Assembly (NCBI RefSeq): GCF_001570565.1
Contig: NZ_BBXE01000013.1
Location: 264,984 to 328,983, forward strand
Direction of reading: 5' to 3'
Source: Herbidospora yilanensis
GTDB taxonomy: Bacteria > Actinomycetota > Actinomycetes > Streptosporangiales > Streptosporangiaceae
DNA: 64,000 bases
The translations under genes and the position numbers were made by a program. Below the pieces are notes generated by a model. It was not told the DNA's origin. It saw only the letters and a program-made list of their open reading frames with translations, and did no database searches. Of the stretch, positions 33,006 to 51,634 are shown piece after piece; within the stretch, counting starts at the first letter, position 1, and the number at the start of each line of letters is the position of its first letter.

Positions 33006-33007
33006 GA

Positions 33008-33517
33008 CTACAGGCCCCCTTCGTAAGGCATGACCCAGAAGAACTCGCCTTCCGCGTCATATTGGAAGATCAGCGCGGCCCCGCCCGCGCGGAAGACGTC
33101 GACGCCGGTCTGGCGCACCTGGATGACCGAGGTCGAGCCGTCGACGGCGCGGATCTCGGCCTGACCGAAGTCGGTGGAGACCGACTGGGTTCTGATGACG
33201 CAGATCTGCCCGACGAAGTCGTGCCGTGAGGGCACCTTCTCGGGCGCGGGCGTGAGGCGGCGTACCAGGAACGCGGCCCCGAGGCCCAGGACGAGCGCGG
33301 CGGCCAGGACCACCCAGCCGAGCGCCGGAAACAGCACGGATCCGGCCAGCGCGGCGAACCACCCCGTGGCCACGAACCCGGAGACCTCGGCCGCGGGCAG
33401 ACCGTCGAGGTCGACCACGCCGAAGGCCACGAGCAGCCAGAACCCGATGACGACGATCAGCGCGAAGCTGAACAGGACAGCCGGGAAGCCTAATGCGGCG
33501 TCCACGAAATCGCGCAA
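33008..33517 (-). CDS. NfeD-like membrane protein (YuaF-type, TM + C-terminal OB-fold)
   Basis: Three or four TM helices followed by a beta-rich C-terminal domain; a 2-nt gap to the flotillin start with a GAAGGGGG RBS. Confidence 0.65.
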   Translation of the reverse strand: MRDFVDAALGFPAVLFSFALIVVIGFWLLVAFGVVDLDGLPAAEVSGFVATGWFAALAGSVLFPALGWVVLAAALVLGLGAAFLVRRLTPAPEKVPSRHDFVGQICVIRTQSVSTDFGQAEIRAVDGSTSVIQVRQTGVDVFRAGGAALIFQYDAEGEFFWVMPYEGGL

Positions 33518-35789: not shown

Positions 35790-38102
35790 ATGTATGGGGG
35801 GAACCTCCCCCCAATACTGCTGGACGTGAGCGATTCGGCCGACCTTCCGCAGTTCCCCGGTGTCCTGGACACCGTGCGCGCCTGGCTCTCCTCCGCCGAT
35901 CCCCGGCCCCTCGTGCTGACCGGGCCGCCCGGCAGCGGCACCGCGGCGTTGCTGGCCCGGCTCGGCGAGCACCTCGCCGGAGAGCCGTCCGTCGTCGTCC
36001 GCGACGACCTCTGCGACGACCCCGCCCGGTTGCCGGCGCGGCCGGGTCTCCGCGTGATCACCCGGGCCCGCCGCCGGCACGACGGGCTGCTCTCCCTTCC
36101 GGTGCGGCCCCTGCGCGGCCACGGCCCCGACAGCGAGGTGGTCCGGTACTTCCTGCGGTGCCTGCGCCGCCACGACCCGACCGCCGTCGTCGCGGCCGAG
36201 GACCTGTCCCAGGTGAGCGAGGTCTGCGCGGCCTCGTTCGGGCTGTCCGCCGACGTCGACCTGCTGGCCGGGCTGGTCGCCCGCTACGGCCTGGCGGCCG
36301 TGCGCGACGCGGTCGCCGAGGACCACCAGCGCACCCGGCTGGCCGGGCTGCTCGGCGACGCCCACGGCCACCACGACCTGAGCGGCGACGAGATGGTCGT
36401 GCTGGCCTCGATCCTGGCGCTGCCGGGCGGGGCGAGCGAGAACGTGCTGCGCCACTCGTTGCCGCGGTGCGACATCGGCGGGCTGACCGCCTCCCTGGTC
36501 GAGCGCGGCCTGGTGGTGCGCGCCGAGCCCCGGCGCTGGCACCTGCGGGTGAGCGGCTTCCCGGCGGCGAGCTGGTGCGCCGCGCGGCCGGAGGTGTCGC
36601 TCGACGCGATCCGCCAGGCGCAGGCCGACTACCTGTCGGGCCAGGTCGCGCGGCTGGCCGCGGGTGTCTTCACCGACCACCAGCGGGCCGTGTTCGCCGA
36701 GTTCGACCACGAGCGGCGCAACCTCAACGCCGCCGTCGCCGAACTCGTCGGCGGCGGCCGGTACGCCCAGGCCGTCGCCCTCATGCGGGACGCCCTGCCG
36801 TTGCTGGCCCGCACCTCCGGCGTGGCCGGGCTGCTGCCGCACCTGCTGCCGGTCATCCGCAGGTACGCGCCCGCGACCCCGGCCGAACGGCACACGTTGT
36901 CGCGGCTGGCCGTGCGGGTGTTCGCGGCCGGAGGGGAACAGGAGGCCGCCGCCGTCTGCTTCGACGCGCTGCCGGAGACCGACCCGGACGTGCCGCTGCT
37001 GGCGGCCCTCGTGCACGCCGTGCCCGACCCGGAGGAGCTGGCCGCCTGCGTGCGGACCGCCCGCGAACAGGGCGACGCGGTCCGGCTGGGCGAGTCGGTC
37101 GGCGAGTACGTCGCCTGCCTGGCCCGGCTGCGCCGGTTCGACCGCGCCGACGCCGAATGCCGTACCGCCCTGTTCGAGGCGATGTGCGGCGGGGACGACC
37201 ACGCCGCGGCCTCGTTGCTGCTCTGGCGCGCGGCCGCCGCCACCGCCCTGGCCACCGGCGACAGCCGCCTGTACGTCGAACGGGCCCTCGCCAAGCTGCT
37301 GCCCCTCGGCCCGGCGGCGGCCATGTCGGCCATCGCCGCCGTGGTCGACGGACGCCACCAGCGCGACCTCCAGCAGAGCGCCGTCGACCTGGCGATGGTC
37401 GCCGGGTCGCTCGGCCGGGCCTGCGCGGCCGAGACGGAGCGTCCGGTCGAGGTCGGCGGGCTGCTGACCGGGCGCATCGGCGTCCGGCCGCTGCGCCGCT
37501 GGGTGACGGCGGGAGAGGGGGTCGACCTCGCCGACCTGCTGTGCGAGATCCTCCAGCGCAGGTTCGGCGACGACCCGGCCGCCCCCCGGCCGGTGCCGCA
37601 GGGCTCCGTCGACCCGAGGGTGCTGCGGGAACGGTCGCGGCTGACCGCCCGCGAGTCGGAGGTCGCCGGGCTGGTCGCGACCGGCCTGACGAACAAGCAG
37701 ATCGCCCGCCGGTTGCGCATCTCCGAGTGGACGGTGGTCAACCACCTGCGCCAGGTGATGCGCAAGCTCGACTGCGCCTCCCGGGTCCAGGTCGCCCGCT
37801 GGGTGCACGATCTGGAGGCCGGGTCAGCCCGTCTCGAACCGGCCGACGGCGACGGTGTGCAGCAGGGCCGGGTCGACCAGCGAGGCGAAGTCGGCCGTGA
37901 CGAGGTCGGCGTCCAGCGCGGCCAGCAGCCCGAGGTGCCGGTCGACGTACTCCGGGGGGTCGATGCCGCACGAGAGGAGTTCCGCGTACTGCTGGGTCAC
38001 GGCCAGGGTGGACTCGTACAGTTCGGGCGCGGCGGCGAGCATGCGGTCCCTGACCCGCGTGACCAGCCCCCCGTCGACGTCACCCTCGCGGAGCTGCGTT
38101 AA
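35790..38102 (+). CDS. LAL-type (large ATP-binding LuxR) transcriptional regulator
   Basis: N-terminal P-loop LVLTGPPGSGTAALLARL; C-terminal LuxR HTH ESEVAGLVATGLTNKQIARRLRISEWTVVNHLRQVMRKL. The first in-frame stop falls ~280 nt inside the convergent M16 gene. Confidence 0.75.
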   Translation: MYGGNLPPILLDVSDSADLPQFPGVLDTVRAWLSSADPRPLVLTGPPGSGTAALLARLGEHLAGEPSVVVRDDLCDDPARLPARPGLRVITRARRRHDGLLSLPVRPLRGHGPDSEVVRYFLRCLRRHDPTAVVAAEDLSQVSEVCAASFGLSADVDLLAGLVARYGLAAVRDAVAEDHQRTRLAGLLGDAHGHHDLSGDEMVVLASILALPGGASENVLRHSLPRCDIGGLTASLVERGLVVRAEPRRWHLRVSGFPAASWCAARPEVSLDAIRQAQADYLSGQVARLAAGVFTDHQRAVFAEFDHERRNLNAAVAELVGGGRYAQAVALMRDALPLLARTSGVAGLLPHLLPVIRRYAPATPAERHTLSRLAVRVFAAGGEQEAAAVCFDALPETDPDVPLLAALVHAVPDPEELAACVRTAREQGDAVRLGESVGEYVACLARLRRFDRADAECRTALFEAMCGGDDHAAASLLLWRAAAATALATGDSRLYVERALAKLLPLGPAAAMSAIAAVVDGRHQRDLQQSAVDLAMVAGSLGRACAAETERPVEVGGLLTGRIGVRPLRRWVTAGEGVDLADLLCEILQRRFGDDPAAPRPVPQGSVDPRVLRERSRLTARESEVAGLVATGLTNKQIARRLRISEWTVVNHLRQVMRKLDCASRVQVARWVHDLEAGSARLEPADGDGVQQGRVDQRGEVGRDEVGVQRGQQPEVPVDVLRGVDAAREEFRVLLGHGQGGLVQFGRGGEHAVPDPRDQPPVDVTLAELR

Positions 38103-39089
38103 CACCCGGGTGATCGCCTCGGCGGCGGCGGGGGCGCGGCCGGCGTCCACGAAGCCGCTGACGATGAACACCCCGCCGGAGAAGAACGGCATGAACCGGG
38201 CCTCGATGCCGTAGCTGGCCCCCATCCGGCCGCGCAGTTCGCGGTTGAGCAGGGAGTCGGGGCCGCCGCCGAGCAGTTCGCCCGCGACCCGGGCCGACGG
38301 CCAGCGCGGGTCGAGCCGGTCGACCGCGAAGCCGCCCAGCACGAGCCGGGTCTGGGGGCCGCCCCGGCCCGGCCGGTGCGTGCGGCCGGGCGTGTCCGCC
38401 GGGAGCGGCGGGACGTCGGCGAGGGGCAGGTCGTCCCCGGCGGGCACGCCGGCGAACGCCTTCGCGGCGGCGTCGGCGGCGCCGGTCCCGGCCAGGTCGC
38501 CGGCCACGACCAGGGTCATCCGGGCGGCGCCGGGCACGACGGCGGCGACGTCGTCCAGGGTCAGCGTGCGCCAGACCGCCTCGGTGCCGCCGAGCGGGCG
38601 GCCGTACCGGGAGCCGGGGGCCAGCACCGACTCGTGCACGAGTTTGTTGCCGAGCGCGATCGGGTCGTCGGACTCCATGGCCCGTTCGGCCACGACCTGG
38701 CGGCGCAGCGCCTCGAACGAGCGGGCCGTCGGCGTGAAGGGGTGCACCATCGCGGCCATCGCCTCGAACAACCGGGGCAGTTCGGCGGCCGGGCAGTCGC
38801 CCATGACGATCGGGCCCCGGTGCCCGCACCGCGTGGTGACCATCCCGCCCGCCAGGGCGAGGTCGCCGACGGTCCCGTCGCGGTGGTGCGGCGCGTCGGC
38901 GTTGAGCAGCGCCGCGTACGCCGCCACCACCCCCTCGGTCTCCGGGCGTTCGACCGCCGTGGTCGGCAGCAGGATCGACAGGGCGGCGGTGGCGACGTGC
39001 CGTCCGGGCATGTCGGCGAGCAGCACCCGCAGGCCGTTGTCCAGCGTGAACGTCTCCGGCTGCGGGAAACGCCAGGTCACAGGATCCAT
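37824..39089 (-). CDS. M16-family peptidase, non-catalytic-type subunit (no HxxEH)
   Basis: Start at MDPVTWRFPQPETFTLDNGLRVLL; M16 fold without the zinc motif; overlaps the start of the upstream M16 partner. Confidence 0.75.
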   Translation of the reverse strand: MDPVTWRFPQPETFTLDNGLRVLLADMPGRHVATAALSILLPTTAVERPETEGVVAAYAALLNADAPHHRDGTVGDLALAGGMVTTRCGHRGPIVMGDCPAAELPRLFEAMAAMVHPFTPTARSFEALRRQVVAERAMESDDPIALGNKLVHESVLAPGSRYGRPLGGTEAVWRTLTLDDVAAVVPGAARMTLVVAGDLAGTGAADAAAKAFAGVPAGDDLPLADVPPLPADTPGRTHRPGRGGPQTRLVLGGFAVDRLDPRWPSARVAGELLGGGPDSLLNRELRGRMGASYGIEARFMPFFSGGVFIVSGFVDAGRAPAAAEAITRVLTQLREGDVDGGLVTRVRDRMLAAAPELYESTLAVTQQYAELLSCGIDPPEYVDRHLGLLAALDADLVTADFASLVDPALLHTVAVGRFETG

Positions 39090-40258
39090 GAGGGTTCTCC
39101 GGCGGCGTGGAAGGCGACGACCGACGGCCGTGCCATCGGCCCGGCGGCCAGCGCGGCCACCTCGGCGTTGGTGACCCGGCGGACGGCGTCGAGCCGCGTG
39201 GTGACCCCGGCGGCGTCGCCCGACCAGGCGTGTTCCCGGCACAACTCCTCGGCGAGTGTGCGGGCGGCCCCGAGGGCCCCGAGTTGTTCCCTGATGCGCA
39301 GGGCCTTGGCGGCGGCCAGCACGTCGGGCGGCAGCCCGTCGCGGGCCACGGCGGCCAGACGGGCGGCGACGTCCCGTTCGAGCGCGGCCAGGTCGGCCGA
39401 GGCCGGGACCGACAGCTTGACCAGGCCGATCGACGGGCCGAGCGCGCACCGGGCGTGCTGGCCGAGCGCGCCGAGCAGGCCGGGCCGCGAGCCGAGCACC
39501 GACCAGGGGGCGCTGGCCAGCGCCGCCATCACCACCTCGGCGGCGGCCGATCCCGGCGGCAGGGCGAAGGTCAGCCGCACCATGGACGTCGGCTGGCCCT
39601 CCTCGACGTCCTCCCGCGCGCCCAGCGGCTCCCCGGTGACCGGCGGCGGGGCCGGCCGGCCCGAGGGAAACCCGGCCAGGTGGTTCCCGGCGATCTCCAC
39701 GGCCGCGTCGGGGTCGGCCGCGCCGACGACCGACACGACCAGCCGGTCGGCGCCGTAGTGGGCCTCCACGAACGTGGCCACGTCGTCGGGCGTCACGGCG
39801 GCGACCTCGGCGGGGTCGCCGACCGGCGGGCGGCCCGCCGGGTGGTCGCGCCCGAATAACAACCGCAGGCCGCGCCGCAGCCCCGACCCGAACCGGCCGG
39901 GTTCGTCGCGTTCGCGGATCTCCTCCAGCACGATCCGGCGGTGTCCCGCCAGCACGTCCCCGGTCACGCCGCGCCGGCCGCGCCGCACCCGGTCGCCGGC
40001 CTCGGCCAGCATCGCCGGGAGGGTGACCGCCGGGCCGGTCGCCACGTAGTTCGTGGACTCGTAGCCGGTGGTGGCCTGCGCCGAGCCGTTCTCGGACATG
40101 ACGTGCTCGACCACGTGAGCCAGGCCCGACCTGCCGATGGGGTCGTGCAGGGAGCCCGCGCCGTGCCAGGCGTTGACCGCGACGAAGCCGAGCCCCGGGT
40201 CGGGCCGCACGACCAGGGTCGCGCCGCCCGGCAGCCGGCGGGTGACCAGCCCGTCCAT
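39077..40258 (-). CDS. M16-family zinc peptidase, catalytic subunit (HVVEH)
   Basis: Start at MDGLVTRRLPGGATLVV; HxxEH motif in GLAHVVEHVMSENGS. Confidence 0.8.
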   Translation of the reverse strand: MDGLVTRRLPGGATLVVRPDPGLGFVAVNAWHGAGSLHDPIGRSGLAHVVEHVMSENGSAQATTGYESTNYVATGPAVTLPAMLAEAGDRVRRGRRGVTGDVLAGHRRIVLEEIRERDEPGRFGSGLRRGLRLLFGRDHPAGRPPVGDPAEVAAVTPDDVATFVEAHYGADRLVVSVVGAADPDAAVEIAGNHLAGFPSGRPAPPPVTGEPLGAREDVEEGQPTSMVRLTFALPPGSAAAEVVMAALASAPWSVLGSRPGLLGALGQHARCALGPSIGLVKLSVPASADLAALERDVAARLAAVARDGLPPDVLAAAKALRIREQLGALGAARTLAEELCREHAWSGDAAGVTTRLDAVRRVTNAEVAALAAGPMARPSVVAFHAAGEPSWIL

Positions 40259-41994
40259 CACGCGCCCACGGGGGCGGGGGCCGCCTGGGCGTGCACGAAC
40301 GCCTGGTAGGCGGGGCTGGCCGACGACAACGTGCCGTGGTCGCCCACGGCGGTGACGCGGCCGGCGTCGACGACCACGATCGTGCCGGCCGCGGCGACCG
40401 TCGACAGGCGGTGGGTGACCATCACCACGGCCCGGTCGCGGCCCAGGTCGGCGAGCAGGTCGGTGAGCCGCCGTTCGTTGACGCCGTCCATGTGCGCGGT
40501 CGGTTCGTCGAGCAGCAGGATCTCGGCGTCGGTCAGCAGGGCGCGGGCGATGGACAGGCGCTGCTCCTCGCCGCCGGACATCTGGTCGCCCGCGCCGAGC
40601 ACCGCGTCCAGCCCGGCGGGCAGGGCGCGCACGGCCTGCTCCAGGCCGACGTCGCGCAGCGCGGTCCACAACTCGTCGTCGGACGGGGCGTCCGACCGGC
40701 CCAGCGTCAGGTTCTCGCGCACGGTCATGGACAGGATCGCCGACCCCTGCTCGACCAGGGCGACCCGGCGGCGGGCCTCGGCTGTCGGCCACTCGTGGAG
40801 GGGCGCGCCGAGGAGCTCCACCCGCCCGGCGTCGGTCTCGACGAAGCCCTCCACCACGTTGAGCAGAGTCGACTTGCCCGCTCCCGACGGTCCGACGATC
40901 GCCAGCACCCCGGTGCGCGGCACCTCAAGAGACACCCCGTCGAGCACCGGCTTGCCGCCGAGCGACACCACGACGTCCGAGAGCCGCAGCGCCGGCGCGC
41001 CCGGCGTCACCTCGGGCGCGCGGGCCGCCCCGGCCGGTTCGGTCTCCGCGCCGAGCACCTCGTCGACCCGCCGCGCGGCGGCCTTGCCGACCGCGATCCT
41101 GCCCGCGCCCTGCGCCAGCGCCATCAGCGGGTTGACGAGCTGGAACAGGTACATCAGGAAGGCGATGAACGCCGTGGTCTCCAGCGCGCCCGAGGCCAGG
41201 CGCACCCCGCCCACGGCGAGCACGCCGATGATGGCGACCTGCTGGCCCAGGCCCATCAGCGGGCTGATCGCCGCCTGGGCCCGCGCCGAGCGCACCGCCG
41301 ACGCCGCCGCCTCGCCGATCTCGTTCTCCAGCGGGGCGATGGCCCGGTCCTCCGCCCGGTACGCCTTGACCGTCGTCACCATCGTGAACACCGACTGCGC
41401 GGCCTGGGCCAGCCGGCCGAGCGCGGCCTGCTGCGCCTCGGCCGCCCGGCGCATGCCCGCCAGGAAGGCCCTGATGGCGATCGCGGCCACGACGAACGTG
41501 CCGACCGTCACGGCCAGCATCACCCAGTCGAGGATGCCCATCACGATCAGGTACGCCGTCACCATCACCGCCGAGACCGGCATGACCGTGACGCCCGTGT
41601 CGGTGATCGCGCGCATCTGGGCGGCGTCGGGCCCCATCCGGGAGACCACCTCGCCCACGCCGATCCGCCGGATCACCGGCACCCGCAGGCGCACCGCCCG
41701 GCGCACCACGGCCAGGCGCACGTCCTCGATGGCCCGTTCCCCGGCCGCGCTCAGCAGGTAGGACGACCAGCCTCCGGCGAACGCCCCGGCCAGCACGATC
41801 ACGACGAGCTGCGCCACCGGCCAGACGACGTCCCCGCCCGTCCCGCCGATCACGCCCAGGATGCGGGCGATCAGCAGCGGCGTGACGATCCCGGCCGCGG
41901 CCGAGACCAGGGCGAGCACCACCGAGGCGGCCAGCCGGCCCCGCCGCGCCCTAACCGACCGGGACAACAACCCGAGTGTCGGCGACTCCGCCAT
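40258..41994 (-). CDS. ABC exporter, fused permease + ATP-binding domains
   Basis: Six TM helices N-terminal; Walker A GPSGAGKST, signature MSGGEEQRLSIARAL, Walker B ILLLDEPT. Confidence 0.85.
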   Translation of the reverse strand: MAESPTLGLLSRSVRARRGRLAASVVLALVSAAAGIVTPLLIARILGVIGGTGGDVVWPVAQLVVIVLAGAFAGGWSSYLLSAAGERAIEDVRLAVVRRAVRLRVPVIRRIGVGEVVSRMGPDAAQMRAITDTGVTVMPVSAVMVTAYLIVMGILDWVMLAVTVGTFVVAAIAIRAFLAGMRRAAEAQQAALGRLAQAAQSVFTMVTTVKAYRAEDRAIAPLENEIGEAAASAVRSARAQAAISPLMGLGQQVAIIGVLAVGGVRLASGALETTAFIAFLMYLFQLVNPLMALAQGAGRIAVGKAAARRVDEVLGAETEPAGAARAPEVTPGAPALRLSDVVVSLGGKPVLDGVSLEVPRTGVLAIVGPSGAGKSTLLNVVEGFVETDAGRVELLGAPLHEWPTAEARRRVALVEQGSAILSMTVRENLTLGRSDAPSDDELWTALRDVGLEQAVRALPAGLDAVLGAGDQMSGGEEQRLSIARALLTDAEILLLDEPTAHMDGVNERRLTDLLADLGRDRAVVMVTHRLSTVAAAGTIVVVDAGRVTAVGDHGTLSSASPAYQAFVHAQAAPAPVGA

Positions 41995-42970
41995 CGGACC
42001 CTCCCCTCGCGCGCACGGCGGCGAAGATCTCGCGCAGGTCGCGCATGCACTCGTCCTGGCCGTACATGTTGTTGACCGAGCTGGGGTTGACGACCACCTC
42101 GTCCACCCCCAGGTCGTGGTACTTGGCGATCTCGTCGGCGATGTGGTCGGGGTCGCCGTAGACGTACACCCCGGCCTGGACGAGTTCCCTGGCGCCCGAC
42201 ACCGGGTCGGAGGCGTCCACGTCGAGGCCCGCCCTGCGCAGCATGTCGGTGTAGTGGGGGGCCGACAGGTGGCTGATGCTGCCGTACTGGGCCAGCAGGT
42301 TGGCCGACCGGCCGGGCCGGGCGACGGCCGCGTGCACGACCGACACGATGCGCGGCGGCGGCTGCACCCCGGCCGCGCCCTGCGCGACGGCCGGCATGAC
42401 GACGTCCTCGATGTACTTGAGCGGCGTCAGCCACGTCATCGCGAGGTCGCCGCAGCGGCCGGTGACCCGGGCCATGGCGGGCCGCAGCACCCCCGCGCCG
42501 ATCTCCACCGGCGGGCAGTCCATCGGCGGCAGCGCGGCGTCGACGGTGAAGTGCTCTCCCTTGTGCCGCACGTGCTCGTTGCGGGCCAGCCGGCGGGCGA
42601 CGTCGATGAACTCGCCGACGATCGCGGCCGGTCTGGCGTACGGCTCGCCGCGCAACTGCGTCACGTACTGCGGGTAGGCGGCGCCGTAGCCGATCGCCAC
42701 CGGTTGTCCCATGAGCCGGGCCAGCGACCGGGCCTGCAACGCCGCGTCGTACGGGTGGCGCAGCACGATCAGCCCGACGGCCATGCCGATCGAGATCCGG
42801 CAGCCCGTCCCGGCCAGGTAGGCGACCGCCGGGTGGGACTCGATCCGCAACGACTGCCCGAGCCACAACCGCGCCGCGCCGATCTCCTCGGTCAGCCGGC
42901 CGTACGGGACGATCGTGTCCGGGTCGGTCGGCTGGTGCGGGAACATGAACGACACCTTGCGCGAGCTCAC
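41951..42970 (-). CDS. LLM-class (luciferase-like) flavin/F420-dependent oxidoreductase
   Basis: TIM-barrel LLM family signature (FPHQPTDPDTIVPYGRLTEEIGAARLWLGQSLRIESH...); GTG start overlapping the upstream stop (GTGA). Confidence 0.75.
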   Translation of the reverse strand: MSSRKVSFMFPHQPTDPDTIVPYGRLTEEIGAARLWLGQSLRIESHPAVAYLAGTGCRISIGMAVGLIVLRHPYDAALQARSLARLMGQPVAIGYGAAYPQYVTQLRGEPYARPAAIVGEFIDVARRLARNEHVRHKGEHFTVDAALPPMDCPPVEIGAGVLRPAMARVTGRCGDLAMTWLTPLKYIEDVVMPAVAQGAAGVQPPPRIVSVVHAAVARPGRSANLLAQYGSISHLSAPHYTDMLRRAGLDVDASDPVSGARELVQAGVYVYGDPDHIADEIAKYHDLGVDEVVVNPSSVNNMYGQDECMRDLREIFAAVRARGGSDGGVADTRVVVPVG

Positions 42971-43938
42971 GACGCCACCTCCACCAGCGGGCTGTCGGCG
43001 TTGCGGTGCGGCGCGAGCGGGTCGGCGTTCGCCTCGGCGAGCGCCTCGGCGACGGCCTCGGCCAGGTCGCGGCCGTCGAACAGGTGCCGCGCCACGCCGT
43101 CGGCGACCGCCATCGTGCGGTGCTGGCCCAGGCTCATGCGGTCCCATCCGGGCCGGGTGTCGCGCGGCTCCCAGCCGTACGCGACGCCGTCGGCGATCGG
43201 GCTGGTCATCACCGAGTGGGCCGGGTTCAGGCCGGGCAGGTTCCGCACCGCCGCGACGAGGCCGCCCACGGCGTGCCACGACTCCTCGGTCAGGTAGACG
43301 ACGATCGCGTCCCGCCTCGGATACTGGTCGGCCTTCGCCAGCACCTTCGCCCGGTAGGTCGCCCCGGCGCCCTCCAGCCGACTCAGCACCGCGTGCCACA
43401 CGGCGGGCGCCATCGACGGCTCGTCGACGTGCAGGTAGATCCGCAGCATGTGGCCGCCGGCCCCGTGGCCGCCCGCCGAGCCGTTGACCAGGAAGAACCC
43501 GGGAGAGAGCGTCGGCCTGATCGCGGGCAGCTCCAGCGTGGTGCGGGTGCCGATCTCCGGCAGCGGCGTCGGGCTCTCGCCCCCGGGGATGCGCAGGCGC
43601 ACCCGGCCGACGTCGAAGAGCACGTGCCGGCCGAGCGGGCCGTCGATCATGGCCGACCGAACGACCGCCGGGGTGCGGCTGGTGCGGTGGGGGGTGGCCT
43701 CCCGCAGGAGGTCCTCGAAGTCGTAGTCGCGGCGCGGGTCCCACTCGCCGGTCCTGACGGCCGAGCCGCTGTGCCAGTGGCGGTAGAGCACCGGCCCGAG
43801 GTCCTGGCGCAACCGGGTGCGGTTGTCGCCCGTGACCGTCTCGTCCCCGACGGTCACCGACCGGGTGTCGGGGTCGAGGCGCAGGTCGCCGAGCAGGTGG
43901 TCGAGCCGGTCGAGGAGACCCTGGTGGGCGATGGTCAT
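42967..43938 (-). CDS. hypothetical ~320-aa protein, candidate HopA1-like phospho-Ser/Thr lyase partner of the kinase
   Basis: No motif I can name with certainty. Assignment is from tight coupling (2-nt gap, GGAGAG RBS) to the APH-like kinase, and from its size and context matching kinase + HopA1-like pairs in class V lanthipeptide and thioamitide clusters. Confidence 0.45.
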   Translation of the reverse strand: MTIAHQGLLDRLDHLLGDLRLDPDTRSVTVGDETVTGDNRTRLRQDLGPVLYRHWHSGSAVRTGEWDPRRDYDFEDLLREATPHRTSRTPAVVRSAMIDGPLGRHVLFDVGRVRLRIPGGESPTPLPEIGTRTTLELPAIRPTLSPGFFLVNGSAGGHGAGGHMLRIYLHVDEPSMAPAVWHAVLSRLEGAGATYRAKVLAKADQYPRRDAIVVYLTEESWHAVGGLVAAVRNLPGLNPAHSVMTSPIADGVAYGWEPRDTRPGWDRMSLGQHRTMAVADGVARHLFDGRDLAEAVAEALAEANADPLAPHRNADSPLVEVAS

Positions 43939-43940
43939 GA

Positions 43941-45046
43941 TCAGTTCTCTCCAAGGCCGATGGTGGGGGCGAACTTCTCCGGCGTCGTGAGCGCGTTGCG
44001 GCCGATCCCGGCCATGCCGCGCTCCACCGCGCTGAGCCGCGCGCCGTGCACGGCGCCCGCGAGCAGCCGGTCGAAGAAGTGCCACCCGATGTAGCCGGTG
44101 GCCCGCACGGCCAGGCCCTCGTCCGGCTCGGCGACCTCCCGGTAGCCCTGCCAGAAGCGGCGGATGTGCTCGCGCACGGCCGACAGGTGCCGGTCGCCCG
44201 CGGCGACGATCGCCTCGTGGGCGGCGCCCGGCGACAGGCCCGTGTCCAGGTCGAGCTCGCGGAACATGCGCGCCACCGCGTGGTGCACGAACTCGCCCGC
44301 GAAGGCCCCGACGTCCCGGGCCGGGTCGTGGTGCCGGAACTCCTCCCAGTCGATGACGTACAGGTCGTCGCCGGAGCACAGGAACTGGTCCAGGCGCAGG
44401 TCGCCGTGGGTGACGGTGGCGGGGGCGGCGGCCGAGACCCGGTGCAGCGCGGCGAGCGCCTCGACCAGCACCTTGTCGTGCTGGAGCAGCGCCCACGCCT
44501 CGACCTCGCCGCCGCTGCAGTTGGCGTAGTCCTCGGGGCTCAGCGCGTAGAAGGCGTTGGCCCGGCGGTCGTCGGCCGACTCGGGCAGGTCCTCGGCGCG
44601 CGGCAGCGAGTGCACCTCGCCCAGCACCCGGCCCATCCGGTGGGCCAGCTCGACGTCGAGCTCCCCGGCCGCCAGCAGGTCGGAGGCGGCGCGGGAGTCC
44701 GGCACGTACTCGAAGACCAGCAGGCATTCGCCGGCGTCGGCGCCGTGGAAGGCCGGCACCCGCAGCTCGGCCGTCGCACGGCCGGCGATCAGCCGCTGGA
44801 AGGCCAGCACCCGGTCCATCCGGGCGGCGGCGTGCGCGCGGTCCCCCCGCAGGCGCTTGACGAACAGGTCGGGTCCCTCGGCGGTCGGCACCAGCCAGTT
44901 GTCGTTGCGGCCGAGGAAGCCGCGCATGCCCTCCACGATGGGCGTGGCCCCGCTGAGCGAGGCGACCGCCTGGACGAACTCCTCCGGGCGCGACACCGGC
45001 CGGGCCGCGACCAGCCGGGTCGTCTGTGTTTCCTCTTTCACGTCCA
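43941..45046 (-). CDS. aminoglycoside-phosphotransferase (APH)-fold kinase, candidate RiPP Ser/Thr kinase
   Basis: HGDLRLDQFL catalytic loop and IDWEEF motif of the APH/choline-kinase fold; divergent from the precursor array. Confidence 0.8.
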
Positions 45047-45104
45047 TGCGCCGAAATCTATGGACGCGGAAAGGCCCCGCGACATCCCAGGAAAGCACCG
45101 GCAG

Positions 45105-45125
45105 CAGGCATATGGCAGATGCCTG
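45105..45125. promoter_or_regulatory. inverted repeat CAGGCAT-N7-ATGCCTG in the divergent promoter between the kinase operon and the precursor array
   Basis: 7-bp perfect arms; the spacer ATGGCAG recurs as a direct repeat at 45153-45159. Confidence 0.3.
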
Positions 45126-45246
45126 ACAGATCCTTGCCGGCCGGTGTTCCCGAATGGCAGTCGGCCGGTGACGCGGGCGCGCAAATCCTCGTCATTTCGC
45201 CAGGACCGGCGGCCTAGTTTCCTTTGTTCCGAAGGAAGGAGATCTC

Positions 45247-45387
45247 ATGTCCAGCGAACTCATCGCGGGATACGCGAACTACGCCAGCACCGAATCGGTC
45301 CTGAGCGAGAACACGACCGCCGAGTGGTGGCCGATCACGTCGTACACCGTCACGCTCTCCACGACGACCACCTCGATCTGGATCTGA
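45247..45387 (+). CDS. candidate RiPP precursor peptide A (46 aa)
   Basis: MSSELIAGYANYASTESVLSENTTAEWWPITSYTVTLSTTTTSIWI; RBS GAAGGAG 7 nt upstream; not in the ORF track. Confidence 0.7.
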   Translation: MSSELIAGYANYASTESVLSENTTAEWWPITSYTVTLSTTTTSIWI

Positions 45388-45397
45388 GGGGCGCGCC

Positions 45398-45538
45398 GTG
45401 TCCGAGCTGATCGCGGGTTACGCCAATTACGCCAGCACCGAGGCGGTGCTCCAGGAACGTTCCGAGGCCGGCCGCTGGATCGAGTGGACCCTCTGGTTCA
45501 CCGTCACCATCTCCGTCACCCCCACCTCCTCCCTCTGA
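45398..45538 (+). CDS. candidate RiPP precursor peptide B (46 aa, GTG start)
   Basis: VSELIAGYANYASTEAVLQERSEAGRWIEWTLWFTVTISVTPTSSL; GAGGGG upstream. Confidence 0.65.
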   Translation: MSELIAGYANYASTEAVLQERSEAGRWIEWTLWFTVTISVTPTSSL

Positions 45539-45559
45539 ACCTGCTGAGAAAGGAAGACC

Positions 45560-45709
45560 ATGTCCGAGCTGATCGCCGGTTACGCCAACTACGCCTCCAC
45601 CGAGGCCATCCTCCAGGAGCGGCAGCTCGCCGCCCGTGAGCCCGAGACCGGCCTGTTCACGCTCACCATCACGATCTCGCTGACCATCACGGTCACGATC
45701 AGCCTCTGA
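45560..45709 (+). CDS. candidate RiPP precursor peptide C (49 aa)
   Basis: MSELIAGYANYASTEAILQERQLAAREPETGLFTLTITISLTITVTISL; RBS AAAGGAAG. Confidence 0.7.
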   Translation: MSELIAGYANYASTEAILQERQLAAREPETGLFTLTITISLTITVTISL

Positions 45710-45722
45710 CCAGGAGGTCCCG

Positions 45723-45872
45723 ATGCACGAGCTCGTCGCCGGATACGCGAACTATGCCTCGGCCGAGGCGATCCTGCGGGAACAGGCCGCCGGGCGTGTT
45801 CTCGAAGCGGGTCTCTTCTTCTCGGTGACCTTCAGCTTCACCCACAGCAATTCCATCTCCTTCTCCATCTGA
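45723..45872 (+). CDS. candidate RiPP precursor peptide D (49 aa)
   Basis: MHELVAGYANYASAEAILREQAAGRVLEAGLFFSVTFSFTHSNSISFSI; RBS CAGGAGG. Confidence 0.7.
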   Translation: MHELVAGYANYASAEAILREQAAGRVLEAGLFFSVTFSFTHSNSISFSI

Positions 45873-45890
45873 CCGAAAGGAAACGGGCGA

Positions 45891-46046
45891 ATGAACGACC
45901 TCATCGCCGGATACGCCAACTACGCCTCCACCGAGGCCATCCTGCACGAGCGGCAGATCGCGAGCCGCGACGCCGAATCGATCAGCGCGACCGTGACGGT
46001 CACCTGGACCCTCACCGTCTCCTGGTCCTACTCCTGGTCCTACTAG
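45891..46046 (+). CDS. candidate RiPP precursor peptide E (51 aa)
   Basis: MNDLIAGYANYASTEAILHERQIASRDAESISATVTVTWTLTVSWSYSWSY; RBS AAAGGAAACGGG; the stop overlaps the stop of the convergent LAL regulator. Confidence 0.7.
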   Translation: MNDLIAGYANYASTEAILHERQIASRDAESISATVTVTWTLTVSWSYSWSY

Positions 46047-48979
46047 GAATCGCGCAGCACCGCGGCGTGGTCCCCCAGCGCCCCCCGGTTGGAAAGCCCG
46101 GTCTTGGCCAGCAGGCTGGCCACGTGCTTCTCCACCGTCCGCGGTGAGATGAAAAGTCGTCGGCCGATCTCGACGTTGCCGAGCCGTTCGGCGAGCAACA
46201 TCAGAACCTGGTGCTCGCGCACGGTCACGCCGAGGTTGCGCAGTTCGCCGGGCACCCCCTCCCGCCCGGGCCGACGGTACGACACCGCCGCCCCCGCCTG
46301 GCGCAGCAACGTGCGGCAGGCCGCCGTCACCGCCGTCACGCCCGCCTCGTGGAAGTGGTCCTCGGCCGCCCGCAACCACACCACCGGCTCGCCCCATCCG
46401 TCGGCCAGCGCGGCCTCCGCGACCAGCCGCGCCCCCAGGTGCGCCGCCTGCGGGAACGGCTCCCCGGCCGCCCGCGCCTCCGCCATCGTCCGCCCGGCCG
46501 CCGCGTGCTCGCCCCGCCCGCCCAGCAACACCGCGCGGGCGAGCAGCAGGAAGTGCCGGTTCCACCGCAGTTCGGCGGCCGGCTGGGCGTGCACGGCCGC
46601 CCAGTCGTCGAGGGTGAGCTCGCCGGCGAGCGCGCCCAGCAGCACGGCCAGGCCGTAGCGGCCCGTCATGTAGTAGAGCGTGGGATGTTCGTCCTCCCAC
46701 GCGCGTGCCCTGGCGAGCAACTCCGCCGCCTGGTCGCGGTCCTCCTCCAGCAGGGCGCAGAACGCCTGGCAGAGGCCGTACACGACCGGGGTGTGCAGGC
46801 TCTGCTCACCGCCCCACCTGCGGAAATCGGCCAGGGCGTGCTCCATGGCCTCGCGCCGCCCCTGGTGGGCGGCCAGTGTCGCCTGCGCCATCAGCAGATA
46901 CTGGGTGTAGGCCGTGTGCCCCAGCCGGATCGTGGTCTCGACGCACGCGGCGGCGGTCTCGGCGGCGCTCTTGTACTCCGCCCGCAGCACCCGCGTCATC
47001 ACCAGGGACGCCTCCGCGCTGTGCACCAGGCTGATCGCGCCCGCCTGGGTGGCCGCCCGCAGCACCTCCTCAAGCGGATCGCTCTCCCCGGTACGCATGT
47101 TGTGGTTGGCCGCCAGCCGGTACATCGCCCGCAACCGCCACAGGCTCAGCCCGTGCACCTCGGCGATGGCCTTCATCCGGGTCAGGCACCGGTCGGGCTC
47201 GCCGAACCCGTGCACCCTGGTCAGCATGGCCAGCCGCTCCCACGCCTGGCAGGCCACCTCGGGCAGCGGCAGCCGCTCGGCCACCTCGGCGGCGCGTCGC
47301 GACAGCGCCTCGGCGGCGGCCATCTCGGCCGGCCCGGCTTCGTTGACGCCGTGGTCGGGGAACAACAACTGCGCCTCGATCACGTCGATCGCGGCGCCGC
47401 GCGCCTCGTCGGGCAGGCTCTCCAGCGACCGCCGCACGGCCGCCACGTGGGCGCGCCCGGCGGGCAACTCGCCGATCTCGGCGGCCACCCACGCCAGCTT
47501 GGTGCGCAGGTCGACCTCCTGCCACAGCCCCATCGACAGGTCGTCGGACGCGCACTCCCTGGCCAGCTCCAGCGCCCGGTCGGCCCGGCCGCCCTCGGTC
47601 AGCGCGTGCAGCAACCGCTGGAGCGTGTGGGCCCGCGCCGGGGCGGGGCCGCCCTCCTGGAGCCGGTCGGCCCGTTCGAGCAGGGTCGCCGCGACGTCGG
47701 CGGCGCCGCCGTTCAGGTAACGTTCGCCCGCCTCGGCCAGCAACGCCCCGGCCGTGTGGACCTCACCGGCCGTCAGCCGCAGGCTCGCGGCGATCTGGAG
47801 CCACTCGTCCGGGAGCCCCGGATACAGGCGTTCGACCGACCGGGCCGCCTGGCGGGCCAGCCGGGCCCGCTCCGCCGGGATCAGCTCCGCCGACAACGCC
47901 TCGGCGGTCAGGGCGTGGCGGAAGGCGTACCATTCCCCGGCCGGTTCGTCGGGCACGACGAGCCGCGCCGTGGTGGCCGCCCGCAGGATCGCCTCGACCC
48001 CCCGGTCGTCGAGGCCGGAGACGTCCTGGATGACCGGCACCGGGAAGCGGTTCCCGAACACCGCCCCGGTCAGCAGCAGCTCGTGCGCCGCCGGCACGAG
48101 CGTCGCCATGCGCGCCGCGATCCCGCGCGCCGCCGAGTTCGGCCCCCGCGCGCCCGGGTCGTCTTTCAGGGCGTCGACGAACTCCTCGACCAAATACGGC
48201 ACGCCGTCCGTCTCGGCCACGAGGCGGTCCATCACTCCGTCCGGCAGCACGTCCGGCAACTCGTCCGGCCGTGCCAGGCAGGCCGCGACGAGCCGGCGGG
48301 TCTCGTCGGGCGACAGCGGCGGCAACTCGACGACCTCCGCCACCTGGCGGCGGGCGCAGTCGTCGGCCACGGTCCGCGCCGGGCCGGCGTGCCCGCGCAG
48401 GTTCACCAGGAGCAACGCCGGCACGTCGGCGAGGTTGTCGGCCAGGTATTCGACCACGCCCAGCGTGCCCGCGTCGGCGTCGTGCAGGTCCTCCAGCACC
48501 AGCACGCCGCCGCGCGACTCCCGTCCGAGAACGGTCAGGAGCCGCAACACGGCCTCGGCGAGGATGACCGCCGACTCCAGCCGCCGCGCGCCCCCCTCCT
48601 CCCGCCACTCGGGCACCAGCGTCGTCAACGCAGGGAGATAGGGCCGCAACAGCGGATCGTCGGGCGGCCTGCGCGACCGGGCGAGCGAGAACAACGCCTC
48701 GCTCAGCGGCTTGAACGGGATGTCCGCGCTGACCGCGCTACCCCGCCCGCGCAGGCTCACCAGCCCCAGGTCACCGGCCCGCCGGAGCACCTCCGACGTC
48801 AACCGGGACTTCCCGATGCCGGGATCGCCGACCAGGAAGACGGTCTTCCCGCGACCGTCCCCGACCTGCTCCAGACACCTGTCGAACAGCGCTTTCTCGG
48901 GTTCCCGCCCGATCAGGACCGGCGACCTGGACACGTTACTTGTGCGACACCGAGACGGGGTTGACGGGGTCGCCCTCAA
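46043..48979 (-). CDS. LAL-type (large ATP-binding LuxR) transcriptional regulator
   Basis: N-terminal P-loop VFLVGDPGIGKSRLTSEVL; C-terminal LuxR HTH REHQVLMLLAERLGNVEIGRRLFISPRTVEKHVASLLAKTG. Confidence 0.85.
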   Translation of the reverse strand: MRATPSTPSRCRTSNVSRSPVLIGREPEKALFDRCLEQVGDGRGKTVFLVGDPGIGKSRLTSEVLRRAGDLGLVSLRGRGSAVSADIPFKPLSEALFSLARSRRPPDDPLLRPYLPALTTLVPEWREEGGARRLESAVILAEAVLRLLTVLGRESRGGVLVLEDLHDADAGTLGVVEYLADNLADVPALLLVNLRGHAGPARTVADDCARRQVAEVVELPPLSPDETRRLVAACLARPDELPDVLPDGVMDRLVAETDGVPYLVEEFVDALKDDPGARGPNSAARGIAARMATLVPAAHELLLTGAVFGNRFPVPVIQDVSGLDDRGVEAILRAATTARLVVPDEPAGEWYAFRHALTAEALSAELIPAERARLARQAARSVERLYPGLPDEWLQIAASLRLTAGEVHTAGALLAEAGERYLNGGAADVAATLLERADRLQEGGPAPARAHTLQRLLHALTEGGRADRALELARECASDDLSMGLWQEVDLRTKLAWVAAEIGELPAGRAHVAAVRRSLESLPDEARGAAIDVIEAQLLFPDHGVNEAGPAEMAAAEALSRRAAEVAERLPLPEVACQAWERLAMLTRVHGFGEPDRCLTRMKAIAEVHGLSLWRLRAMYRLAANHNMRTGESDPLEEVLRAATQAGAISLVHSAEASLVMTRVLRAEYKSAAETAAACVETTIRLGHTAYTQYLLMAQATLAAHQGRREAMEHALADFRRWGGEQSLHTPVVYGLCQAFCALLEEDRDQAAELLARARAWEDEHPTLYYMTGRYGLAVLLGALAGELTLDDWAAVHAQPAAELRWNRHFLLLARAVLLGGRGEHAAAGRTMAEARAAGEPFPQAAHLGARLVAEAALADGWGEPVVWLRAAEDHFHEAGVTAVTAACRTLLRQAGAAVSYRRPGREGVPGELRNLGVTVREHQVLMLLAERLGNVEIGRRLFISPRTVEKHVASLLAKTGLSNRGALGDHAAVLRDS

Positions 48980-49136
48980 GTCCGAGCGCGATGGTCGCGC
49001 CCGCGGCGGTGTCGGGCGACTTAAGGATCAGGGTCGCGCCCGCGGTCAGCCCCGCCAGCACGAGCGCCCGGGTGAGCGGCCTGATGTTGGCCAGCCGCGC
49101 GCCGGCCGCGAGCACCGGATTCTGCTCAGTGTTCAT
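48936..49136 (-). CDS. small (66 aa) hydrophobic protein translationally coupled to the LanM-like gene
   Basis: MNTEQNPVLAAGARLANIRPLTRALVLAGLTAGATLILKSPDTAAGATIALGLEGDPVNPVSVSHK; GC3-rich; the start overlaps the lanM-like stop (ATGA); no Cys. Confidence 0.55.
   Translation of the reverse strand: MNTEQNPVLAAGARLANIRPLTRALVLAGLTAGATLILKSPDTAAGATIALGLEGDPVNPVSVSHK

Positions 49137-51634: not shown

Follow-up and report, generated by a model that had tools for sequence, protein, structure and literature searches.

A Cysteine-Free Relative of the Class V Lanthipeptide Pathway in Herbidospora yilanensis and Its Candidate Linear, D-Residue-Containing Products

Introduction

What can a pathway equipped with lanthipeptide-type dehydrating enzymes make from peptides that have no cysteine? 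The question is raised by a two-arm gene cluster in a stretch of Herbidospora yilanensis DNA of 64,000 nucleotides (assembly GCF_001570565.1, contig NZ_BBXE01000013.1, positions 264,984 to 328,983), called here the window. An earlier reading of its sequence, the original prediction, described a cluster for peptides made by the ribosome and modified after translation (RiPPs): Cys-free precursors, an operon for a kinase, a HopA1-like protein and an oxidoreductase of the luciferase-like monooxygenase (LLM) family on one side, and a LanM-like protein, a 66-aa open reading frame (ORF) and a LAL regulator on the other. All the genes it listed are in place.

Here we argue that the cluster probably represents a RiPP pathway derived from the class V lanthipeptide (lanthidin) route, in which dehydration, reduction, proteolysis and export were kept and the formation of thioethers and of aminovinyl-cysteine (AviCys) was lost. 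The observations that carry this view are the gene content, the families to which the proteins belong, their catalytic residues, synteny, the pattern of the precursor cores, and the joint loss of the cyclase and decarboxylase genes.

The precursor peptides

Five tandem precursor genes of 46-51 codons occupy positions 45247-46046 of the plus strand, divergent from the kinase operon. A ribosome-binding site, AGGAAGGAG, stands ahead of the first.

45048-45246, no strand: divergent intergenic region, presumed from its position to hold the promoters
45247-45387, plus strand: precursor 1, ending ...ENTTAEWWPITSYTVTLSTTTTSIWI; no Cys; GC content at third codon positions (GC3) 0.91; 47 bits with the leader hidden Markov model
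45398-45538, plus strand: precursor 2 (GTG start), ending ...RWIEWTLWFTVTISVTPTSSL; no Cys
45560-45709, plus strand: precursor 3, ending ...EPETGLFTLTITISLTITVTISL; no Cys; strict alternation over 17 residues
45723-45872, plus strand: precursor 4, ending ...LEAGLFFSVTFSFTHSNSISFSI; no Cys; LxmA_leader 23.5 bits (cutoff 25)
45891-46046, plus strand: precursor 5, ending ...RDAESISATVTVTWTLTVSWSYSWSY; no Cys; aromatic-rich C-terminus; strict alternation over 23 residues

The window DNA is high in GC (about 0.70-0.77), and genes were called from third-position GC together with translation; GC3 is 0.82-0.96 across the five precursors, none of which has a Cys. Precursor 2, its GTG start read as Met, matches P0008 of H. 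yilanensis. All five share the leader xELIAGYANYASTEAILQER. It contains the class V leader motif L-x-x-G-Y-x-x-Y, here as ELIAGYANYASTEAILQE, in a distinct and nearly invariant subtype. The family formed by these precursors and their relatives is small (at 90% identity, 14 clusters in a database of 5.8 billion proteins), and Cys is absent from 38 of the 39 family precursors.

A further feature of the 39 peptides is the order of residues in their cores. The longest strict Ser/Thr alternation averages 15.3 residues, as against 4.8 in composition-preserving shuffles, and in 27 of the peptides the observed alternation was matched by at most 1 in 2000 shuffles; the alternation is not due to chance. 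Counted from the C-terminus, Ser or Thr stands at -2, -4 and so on to -16 in 28-37 of the 39 peptides and never at -1. The odd positions are filled by Val, Ile, Leu, Ala or an aromatic residue, the aromatics being concentrated at -1, -3, -5 and -7 (15, 17, 13 and 13 of 39) and fading toward the N-terminus. Almost no Asn, Gln, Asp or Lys is found in the polar phase, which argues that its residues are enzyme substrates, that is, modification sites, rather than a generic polar face. Only from about -18 upstream are charged residues frequent, and this boundary suggests a core of roughly 16-22 residues. At two related loci (L011 and L023 in our labelling) the core pattern is kept though the leaders have diverged (MAADLMAGYVAYTNAPDILAEA...), so the core pattern is the more deeply conserved feature.

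Compared with its counterpart in H. solisilvae (L004, 8832-9798), the window array (45247-46046) has five genes instead of six, two of them swapped. In precursor 4 the core of another gene is joined to a leader of the type that the missing sixth gene has, which suggests recombination within the array. Decayed precursor-like ORFs at L002 (10521-10667) and L007 (9579-9695), one with a degenerate leader and a non-alternating core and the other leader-only, point to gene birth and death within arrays. The single precursor with cysteines, from Flexivirga (L024, 5572-5721), ends in ...TVTTICSCTL and has two; no cyclase or LanD gene is present at that locus.

Joint loss of cysteine and the cyclisation genes

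Related loci were collected by a genome scan with the kinase alignment and by look-ups of gene context. The order kinase-lyase-LLM beside 1-6 tandem precursors recurs in 11 loci from at least seven genera; the hosts are Herbidospora solisilvae, two Sphaerimonospora, Rhizohabitans, Embleya, two Streptomyces strains (sp. HPF1205 and NBC_01190), Micromonospora sp. DT228, Flexivirga sp. B27 and one metagenome-assembled genome (MAG). The proteins of the H. solisilvae locus L004 are 89-97% identical to those of the window cluster. Kinase, lyase and LLM are kept at every Cys-free locus, and the peptidases, the exporter and a LuxR-family regulator at most of them.

More distant loci, with kinases and lyases at 36-46% identity, have L-x-x-G-Y-x-x-Y leaders on Cys-containing cores, most of which end in Cys. 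Seven such class V loci (L013-L016, L018, L019 and L025) provide the comparison. All seven have a protein of about 300 aa, our candidate for the class V cyclase (LxmX/RosX-type), as well as the flavoprotein decarboxylase LanD; when the L025 proteins were used as tblastn queries, neither was found at any of the 12 Cys-free loci, the window included. The loss of Cys thus coincides with the loss of both the thioether and the AviCys enzyme. The claim of the original prediction that lanthionine cannot form here had been based on the Cys-free cores; it is strengthened by the missing cyclase and LanD at every Cys-free locus, which together with the missing Cys leave no way to a lanthionine or an AviCys. 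For the leader strings of the distant class V precursors no relevant paper was found, and these loci are not tied to named compounds.

One locus keeps other company as well. In Micromonospora sp. DT228 (L023, 1-3420 and 15665-16960), the kinase-lyase-LLM cluster has a canonical class II lanthipeptide set on one side (a 999-aa LanM, a Cys-rich 62-aa precursor and a C39-ABC transporter) and a YcaO gene with a 59-aa ORF on the other.

The kinase and the lyase

The genes for the predicted modification, cleavage and export steps form one minus-strand operon, in the order kinase, HopA1 protein, LLM, ATP-binding cassette (ABC) exporter and M16 pair.

43941-45047, minus strand: LxmK-type (APH-fold) peptide Ser/Thr kinase, 368 aa (NCBIfam NF038156)
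42967-43938, minus strand: HopA1/LxmY(CaoY)-type phospho-Ser/Thr lyase, 323 aa (Pfam HopA1, PF17914, 6.5e-41)
41951-42970, minus strand: LLM-family F420-type oxidoreductase (Pfam Bac_luciferase, PF00296, 1.3e-32)
40258-41994, minus strand: ABC half-transporter with transmembrane and nucleotide-binding domains (Pfam ABC_membrane 8.6e-31, ABC_tran 4.8e-31)
39077-40261, minus strand: M16B peptidase subunit with the HVVEH zinc motif, about 394 aa (Peptidase_M16_C 6e-11 and a weak Peptidase_M16 match)
37824-39089, minus strand: M16B peptidase subunit without HxxEH (non-catalytic partner), 421 aa (Pfam Peptidase_M16_C 1.5e-17)

The genes are tightly packed. The ATG of the HopA1 gene lies 2 nt past the kinase stop, and the LLM gene, translationally coupled to HopA1, begins with a GTG that shares bases with the HopA1 stop (GTGA). 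For the ABC transporter, the annotated ATG places the first 44 nt of the gene within the 3' end of that for the LLM (41951-41994); this start codon is uncertain, and either the overlap is real or the start lies further downstream.

The original prediction had called the first protein of the operon an APH-fold kinase, with the motifs HGDLRLDQFL and IDWE; HGDLRLDQFL and VIDWEEF are both present. In the Pfam copy used there is no significant APH match (only TCAD9, E=0.0037), and the case is made by two other comparisons: the protein scores 364 bits against a cutoff of 315 with the LxmK equivalog NF038156 of NCBIfam, and it matches chain A of PDB entry 9DK1 (9dk1_A) at 9.6e-55. On these sequence matches its identity as a kinase of this type is unambiguous. 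The entry is the co-crystal of LxmK and LxmY, the lexapeptide dehydratase (PMC12141560). In an alignment of 21 homologs, drawn from the Cys-free family and from classical class V clusters, the residues of the VK, HxDxRxDQ and IDWEE motifs (K64; H214, D216, R218, D220 and Q221; D233, E235 and E236) are invariant, those of the catalytic loop and for Mg binding among them.

For the second protein the HopA1-like assignment could not be made from motifs, and a profile search had been named as the check. The protein passes it, matching Pfam HopA1 as listed above and the other chain of the co-crystal (9dk1_B, 'Lyase') at 9.9e-41. R166, K198, R208 and Y215 are invariant in the corresponding alignment of 21 homologs, and their spacing (32/10/7) is that of R187, K219, R229 and Y236 in CaoY. 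In CaoY, the changes R187A and K219A abolish phosphate elimination and R229Q makes it inefficient; the CaoKY system dehydrates CaoA eight-fold, and CaoK recognises the L-x-x-G-Y-x-x-Y leader motif (PMC9486802).

The candidate reductase

The LLM protein was expected to belong with the LanJC reductases of lanthipeptide clusters; grouping with alkanesulfonate monooxygenases or glucose-6-phosphate dehydrogenases would have spoken against this, and no such grouping is seen. Its top 10 NCBIfam matches are all F420-type LLM families, the best being TIGR03564 (MSMEG_4879, 1e-28), and its best PDB matches are F420-dependent Mer enzymes. The MSMEG_4879 domain has also been reported for LxmJ, the first LanJC shown to reduce dehydroalanine (Dha) to D-Ala, and for Cao12 of cacaoidin (PMC8068269).

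The four relatives of the protein that we sampled all lie in lanthipeptide-type clusters: two are in kinase-lyase-LLM loci, a third is in a class V cluster and the fourth in a class I (LanB/LanC) cluster. Six class V loci with Cys-containing cores also have LLM homologs, at 42-46% identity, beside the kinase and lyase. Those of the Cys-free loci form a cluster of their own, with at least 55% identity within it and at most 53% to others, and the next relatives outside (42-49% identity) belong to class V and class I LanB/LanC clusters. Such a grouping with the LLMs of lanthipeptide clusters is the pattern expected of a LanJC. Between genera, the LLM is also the most conserved enzyme of the set (74-82% identity, vs. 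62-70% for the kinase and 61-65% for the lyase). Furthermore, the fitness of LanJC substrates is set by hydrophobic residues at -2 to +2, with Ala, Phe, Ile and Val preferred at -1 (reviewed in PMC13348032); since such residues surround every Ser/Thr in the Cys-free cores, the cores fit LanJC action. From its sequence relationships we regard the LLM as a candidate LanJC reductase of dehydroamino acids.

A second LLM (P0111), 48% identical to that of the window, is encoded elsewhere in a Herbidospora genome (H. yilanensis, contig of 375 kb) and probably marks another lanthipeptide-type cluster.

Peptidases, exporter and regulator

The ABC half-transporter, which has no C39 peptidase domain, is the presumed exporter, and the HVVEH subunit of the M16B pair the presumed leader peptidase. 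The transporter is 59-97% identical to its homologs at L004-L008 and L010, and 49% identical at L011. The HVVEH subunit is conserved at L004-L008, L010 and L024, and its HxxEH-less partner at L004-L008 and L010. Convergent with the M16 genes is a further member of the system:

35790-38102, plus strand: LuxR-family (GerE helix-turn-helix) regulator, 770 aa (Pfam GerE 2e-18)

Homologs of this protein flank the kinase-lyase-LLM operon at L004-L009 (46-94% identity) and L011 (31%), and GerE genes do so also at L023 and L024; it is a regulator that travels with the cluster. The span originally given to the cluster, 37824-51634, contains the genes ascribed to it and needs extension at this end, as the conserved regulator lies outside.

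In four genomes the precursor arrays have other neighbors. A TetR gene and a conserved protein of about 118 aa adjoin the arrays of Embleya, the MAG, Micromonospora and Flexivirga (L001 10731-11683, L010 8015-8835, L023 3720-4631, L024 3873-4603); the window has the LanM-like/66-aa ORF/LAL module in that place instead.

The proposed pathway and the extent of reduction

How would these parts work together? We propose that the L-x-x-G-Y-x-x-Y-type leader recruits the LxmK-type kinase and LxmY-type lyase, and that the pair phosphorylates the alternate Ser/Thr residues of the Cys-free core and eliminates the phosphate to leave Dha and dehydrobutyrine (Dhb). With neither Cys nor a cyclase, these residues would not be consumed by rings. 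The F420H2-dependent, LanJC-type LLM would then reduce some or all of them to D-Ala and D-2-aminobutyrate (D-Abu), the M16B heterodimer would cut off the leader, and the ABC transporter would export the product. The product would be a linear, uncharged and very hydrophobic peptide with D- or residual dehydro residues at -2, -4, -6 and so on, L-Val, Ile, Leu, Trp, Tyr or Phe between them, and the aromatics toward the C-terminal end. Several points are what we infer from the observations described so far: dehydration at most sites, how far and with what stereochemistry reduction proceeds, the cofactor, the site of cleavage, and activity.

The steps differ in how firmly they can be held. Dehydration at multiple sites by the kinase and lyase is very likely. 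Reduction of at least some sites to D-residues by the LLM is also likely, though less so. That D-residues occupy most Ser/Thr positions is possible, with the balance tilted slightly against it. The original prediction considered a product in which every Ser/Thr would be dehydrated and reduced. In the boldest reading the cluster would make ribosomal analogues of gramicidin A, uncharged, strictly D/L-alternating and 16-22 residues long, with essentially every Ser/Thr converted to D-Ala or D-Abu and L-Trp or Tyr at -1, -3, -5 and -7, which would act as beta-helical membrane channels; this we hold to be doubtful.

Several findings weigh against the pathway as drawn, in particular against complete reduction. 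The characterised class V products are only partly reduced: RosJ carries out two reductions in rosin A1, for nine dehydrations, and sistertide A1 has five for 11 (PMC12291118, PMC11162475). LxmJ did not reduce Dhb in an S28T variant (PMC8068269), and Thr outnumbers Ser in the family cores (158 vs. 131). The partial hydrogenation and the Thr majority are the reasons for our lower estimate of complete reduction. The LLM scores below the curated full-length cutoff of every NCBIfam F420 subfamily, and its cofactor and reaction are read from homology, at 42-49% identity, to LLMs of lanthipeptide clusters. The leaders score 15-23.5 bits with LxmA_leader (NF038146), their sole NCBIfam match, where the cutoff is 25 and positive controls reach 31-54. 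Some cores break the regularity with runs of TTTT or with Pro, Asn or His. Finally, the LanM-like enzyme of the other arm hints at additional or different chemistry in this organism.

The partial hydrogenation of known compounds raises the question of whether reduction is the rule or the exception here. If the kinase and lyase dehydrate the core and the LLM reduces one or a few sites, the products would be linear, rigid chains rich in Dha and Dhb. Lexapeptide, with its single D-Ala (PMC8068269), is a precedent along with rosin A1 and sistertide A1, and the failure of LxmJ on Dhb in an S28T variant bears on cores where Thr is in the majority. In the known compounds, however, the addition of Cys also uses up dehydro residues, which is impossible here. 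The LLM is invariably present and more conserved than the other enzymes, every site has hydrophobic neighbors at -1 and +1, as LanJC enzymes favor (PMC13348032), and the LanJC family is able to reduce Dhb: MatR1 forms D-Abu from it, and a MatR1 knockout keeps the Dhb (PMC11162475). Mostly dehydrated products are unlikely, in our estimate, and we prefer the pathway as drawn.

A different view would dispense with most of the chemistry. Thr, Val and Ile are strong beta-formers. Strict alternation of polar and hydrophobic residues is the classic signature of an amphipathic beta-strand, and cores with few or no modifications might self-assemble into surface-active or amyloid-like layers, as a morphogenetic surfactant does; several paralogous precursors per locus would suit a structural material. 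However, the polar positions are almost never other than Ser/Thr, the sole residues that the kinase and lyase can modify, every array comes with its own conserved kinase, lyase and reductase, and the LxmKY and CaoKY pairs dehydrate their substrates multiply (PMC9486802). We consider unmodified or sparsely modified strands very unlikely, compared with the dehydration and reduction proposed above.

The LanM-like arm

The second arm runs on the minus strand, convergent with the precursor array:

46043-48934, minus strand: LAL-type regulator (AAA_16 and LuxR helix-turn-helix; Pfam AAA_16 1.5e-21, GerE 5.7e-10)
48936-49136, minus strand: 66-aa ORF with a conserved hydrophobic segment, 55-95% conserved at L004-L006
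49133-51634, minus strand: LanM-like protein, 833 aa (TIGR03897 459 bits; DUF4135, PF13575, 6.3e-86)

The LanM-like protein is well above the TIGR03897 cutoff of 304 bits and matches LicM2 at 1e-49. Its DUF4135 domain aligns with that of LicM2, including the DLHFENVVA...VVDAETLF motifs, and looks intact. The LanC-like cyclase domain is incomplete: it is shortened, and the LANC_like match covers profile positions 4-120 of 350. Orthologs are found at L004 (3280-5775), L005 (3031-5709) and L006 (2994-5693). Alignment with a canonical LanM reveals that all four proteins, the window's included, have GFAFG in place of GFAHG, the zinc ligands of WCxG and LCHG being retained, and that several stretches of the LanC-like domain are deleted in the Herbidospora copies. 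The His of GFAHG is presumably the catalytic residue, an assignment that we carry over from NisC.

The 66-aa ORF, for which Pfam and NCBIfam gave no family match, has orthologs at L004 (5775-5972), L005 (5783-5941) and L006 (5768-5911). They share the hydrophobic segment TRALVLAGLT..ATLxL[KR]SP and, at the C-terminus, the motif P[VI]SVS. We considered the ORF as a substrate of the LanM-like enzyme: Cys is absent from it, Ser/Thr are few, and the hydrophobic segment resembles a membrane anchor or signal. A membrane protein, an immunity protein and a peptide substrate are all conceivable.

The original prediction made this arm part of the system. The LanM-like/66-aa ORF/LAL module is confined to Herbidospora and Sphaerimonospora (L004-L006) and absent from eight of the 11 related loci; being restricted to two genera, it is a lineage-specific accessory rather than part of the conserved system. 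That the LanM-like enzyme is the principal dehydratase of the window precursors, with the kinase, lyase and LLM otherwise employed, is highly improbable: its gene lies directly downstream of the array, its dehydratase domain looks intact and the change of the cyclase-motif His to Phe would suit a Cys-free substrate, but the loci that lack it keep the same precursors and enzymes, its identity between Herbidospora and Sphaerimonospora is only 49-50%, as against 73-80% for the kinase, lyase and LLM, and the leaders have the class V motif that CaoK recognises (PMC9486802), so we have rejected it as the core dehydratase on phylogenetic distribution. In this organism, the LanM-like enzyme and the 66-aa ORF could still add to or alter the chemistry of the conserved pathway.

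The rest of the window

The flanking genes, which encode Hsp20, NAD kinase and a sigma factor at one end and peroxiredoxin and a DUF998 protein at the other, are unrelated to the cluster, and no further biosynthetic genes were found among the flanking and more distant genes in the remainder of the window. One pair farther away is large and conserved-looking: a 1597-aa protein (26278-33056, minus strand) with DUF3686 ('ATPase involved in DNA repair'), DUF7902 and AAA_5 is encoded directly downstream of, and slightly overlapping, a 686-aa ORF that has no Pfam match.

Comparison with known systems

The nearest relatives of the pathway are the class V lanthipeptides or lanthidins: lexapeptide, cacaoidin, pristinin A3, massatides, sistertides and rosins. 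They share with it an LxmK kinase and a HopA1/LxmY lyase with the same catalytic residues, an LLM F420-type reductase, an M16B pair, an ABC exporter, a LuxR regulator, actinomycete hosts (PMC9486802, PMC12291118) and the L-x-x-G-Y-x-x-Y leader motif. The differences lie in the substrate and what follows from it. Here the cores are Cys-free in 38 of 39 cases and are strict alternations of Ser/Thr and hydrophobic residues; there is no cyclase and no LanD, the leaders stay under the cutoff of LxmA_leader, and the LLMs cluster apart. A lanthipeptide is defined by lanthionine or methyllanthionine, which requires Cys in the core, and the window precursors have none.

A Cys-free peptide with D-residues derived from dehydration has a precedent. 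The Bsj-alpha peptide of bicereucin, a two-component lantibiotic, acquires several D-residues through dehydration and hydrogenation. It is not known to have a strict alternation. Its machinery is class II and unrelated, a LanM with a flavin mononucleotide (FMN)-type LanJB in the Firmicutes (Bacillus cereus), and it has a lanthionine-containing partner peptide. Bsj-alpha is reported to be without any cysteines and not a lanthipeptide (PMC10125368), and it is the nearest precedent for such a product.

Two other systems are analogous in the shape of the product. Polytheonamides, of the proteusin group, are ribosomal peptides with alternating D- and L-residues that form beta-helical membrane channels, and we propose a functional analogy with what the Cys-free family may make. 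Unlike that family, they rely on a radical-SAM epimerase that acts directly on L-residues, in place of dehydration and reduction; their leader is of the NHLP type, their core has 48 residues, and many further modifications occur. No homologs of the polytheonamide enzymes are present in the window. Gramicidin A of Brevibacillus is an uncharged peptide of about 15 residues in which every second residue is D; its L-Trp residues stand at 9, 11, 13 and 15, or -7, -5, -3 and -1 counted from the C-terminus. This is the register of the family cores, with Ser/Thr at even positions and aromatics enriched at -1, -3, -5 and -7. The parallel is closer than the original prediction had it; it is an analogy nevertheless. 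[quoted passage not shown]

Concluding remarks

Why has the family gone unnoticed? The precursors are annotated as hypothetical, their leaders fall below the LxmA_leader cutoff, and the published survey of class V precursors kept only ORFs 'containing Cys and Ser/Thr' (PMC9486802), a filter that would exclude a Cys-free family. In the literature we found no paper that prints these leaders or describes Cys-free class V-type clusters; coverage was incomplete, mostly without subscription journals, and is no proof of novelty. The enzymology is known. What is new is the architecture of the substrates, the joint loss of the cyclisation genes and the predicted type of product. The cluster is small, with a core of about 10 kb, and directly testable.

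If the proposal holds, a D/L-alternating backbone could be written ribosomally by genetically simple means, dehydration and then hydrogenation, with a Ser or Thr codon setting each D-position. It would offer a programmable route to gramicidin- and polytheonamide-like membrane-active peptides and to protease-resistant, D-rich ones. Should the gramicidin-like reading be true, it would be a third independent route to such structures, after NRPS epimerisation in gramicidin and radical-SAM epimerisation in polytheonamides. The LanJC enzymes of the family may then show unusual processivity and an ability to reduce Dhb, properties that would be of use in peptide engineering. In closing, the Cys-free loci would show how a lanthipeptide pathway turns into a non-lanthipeptide one, through the joint loss of cyclase, decarboxylase and Cys.

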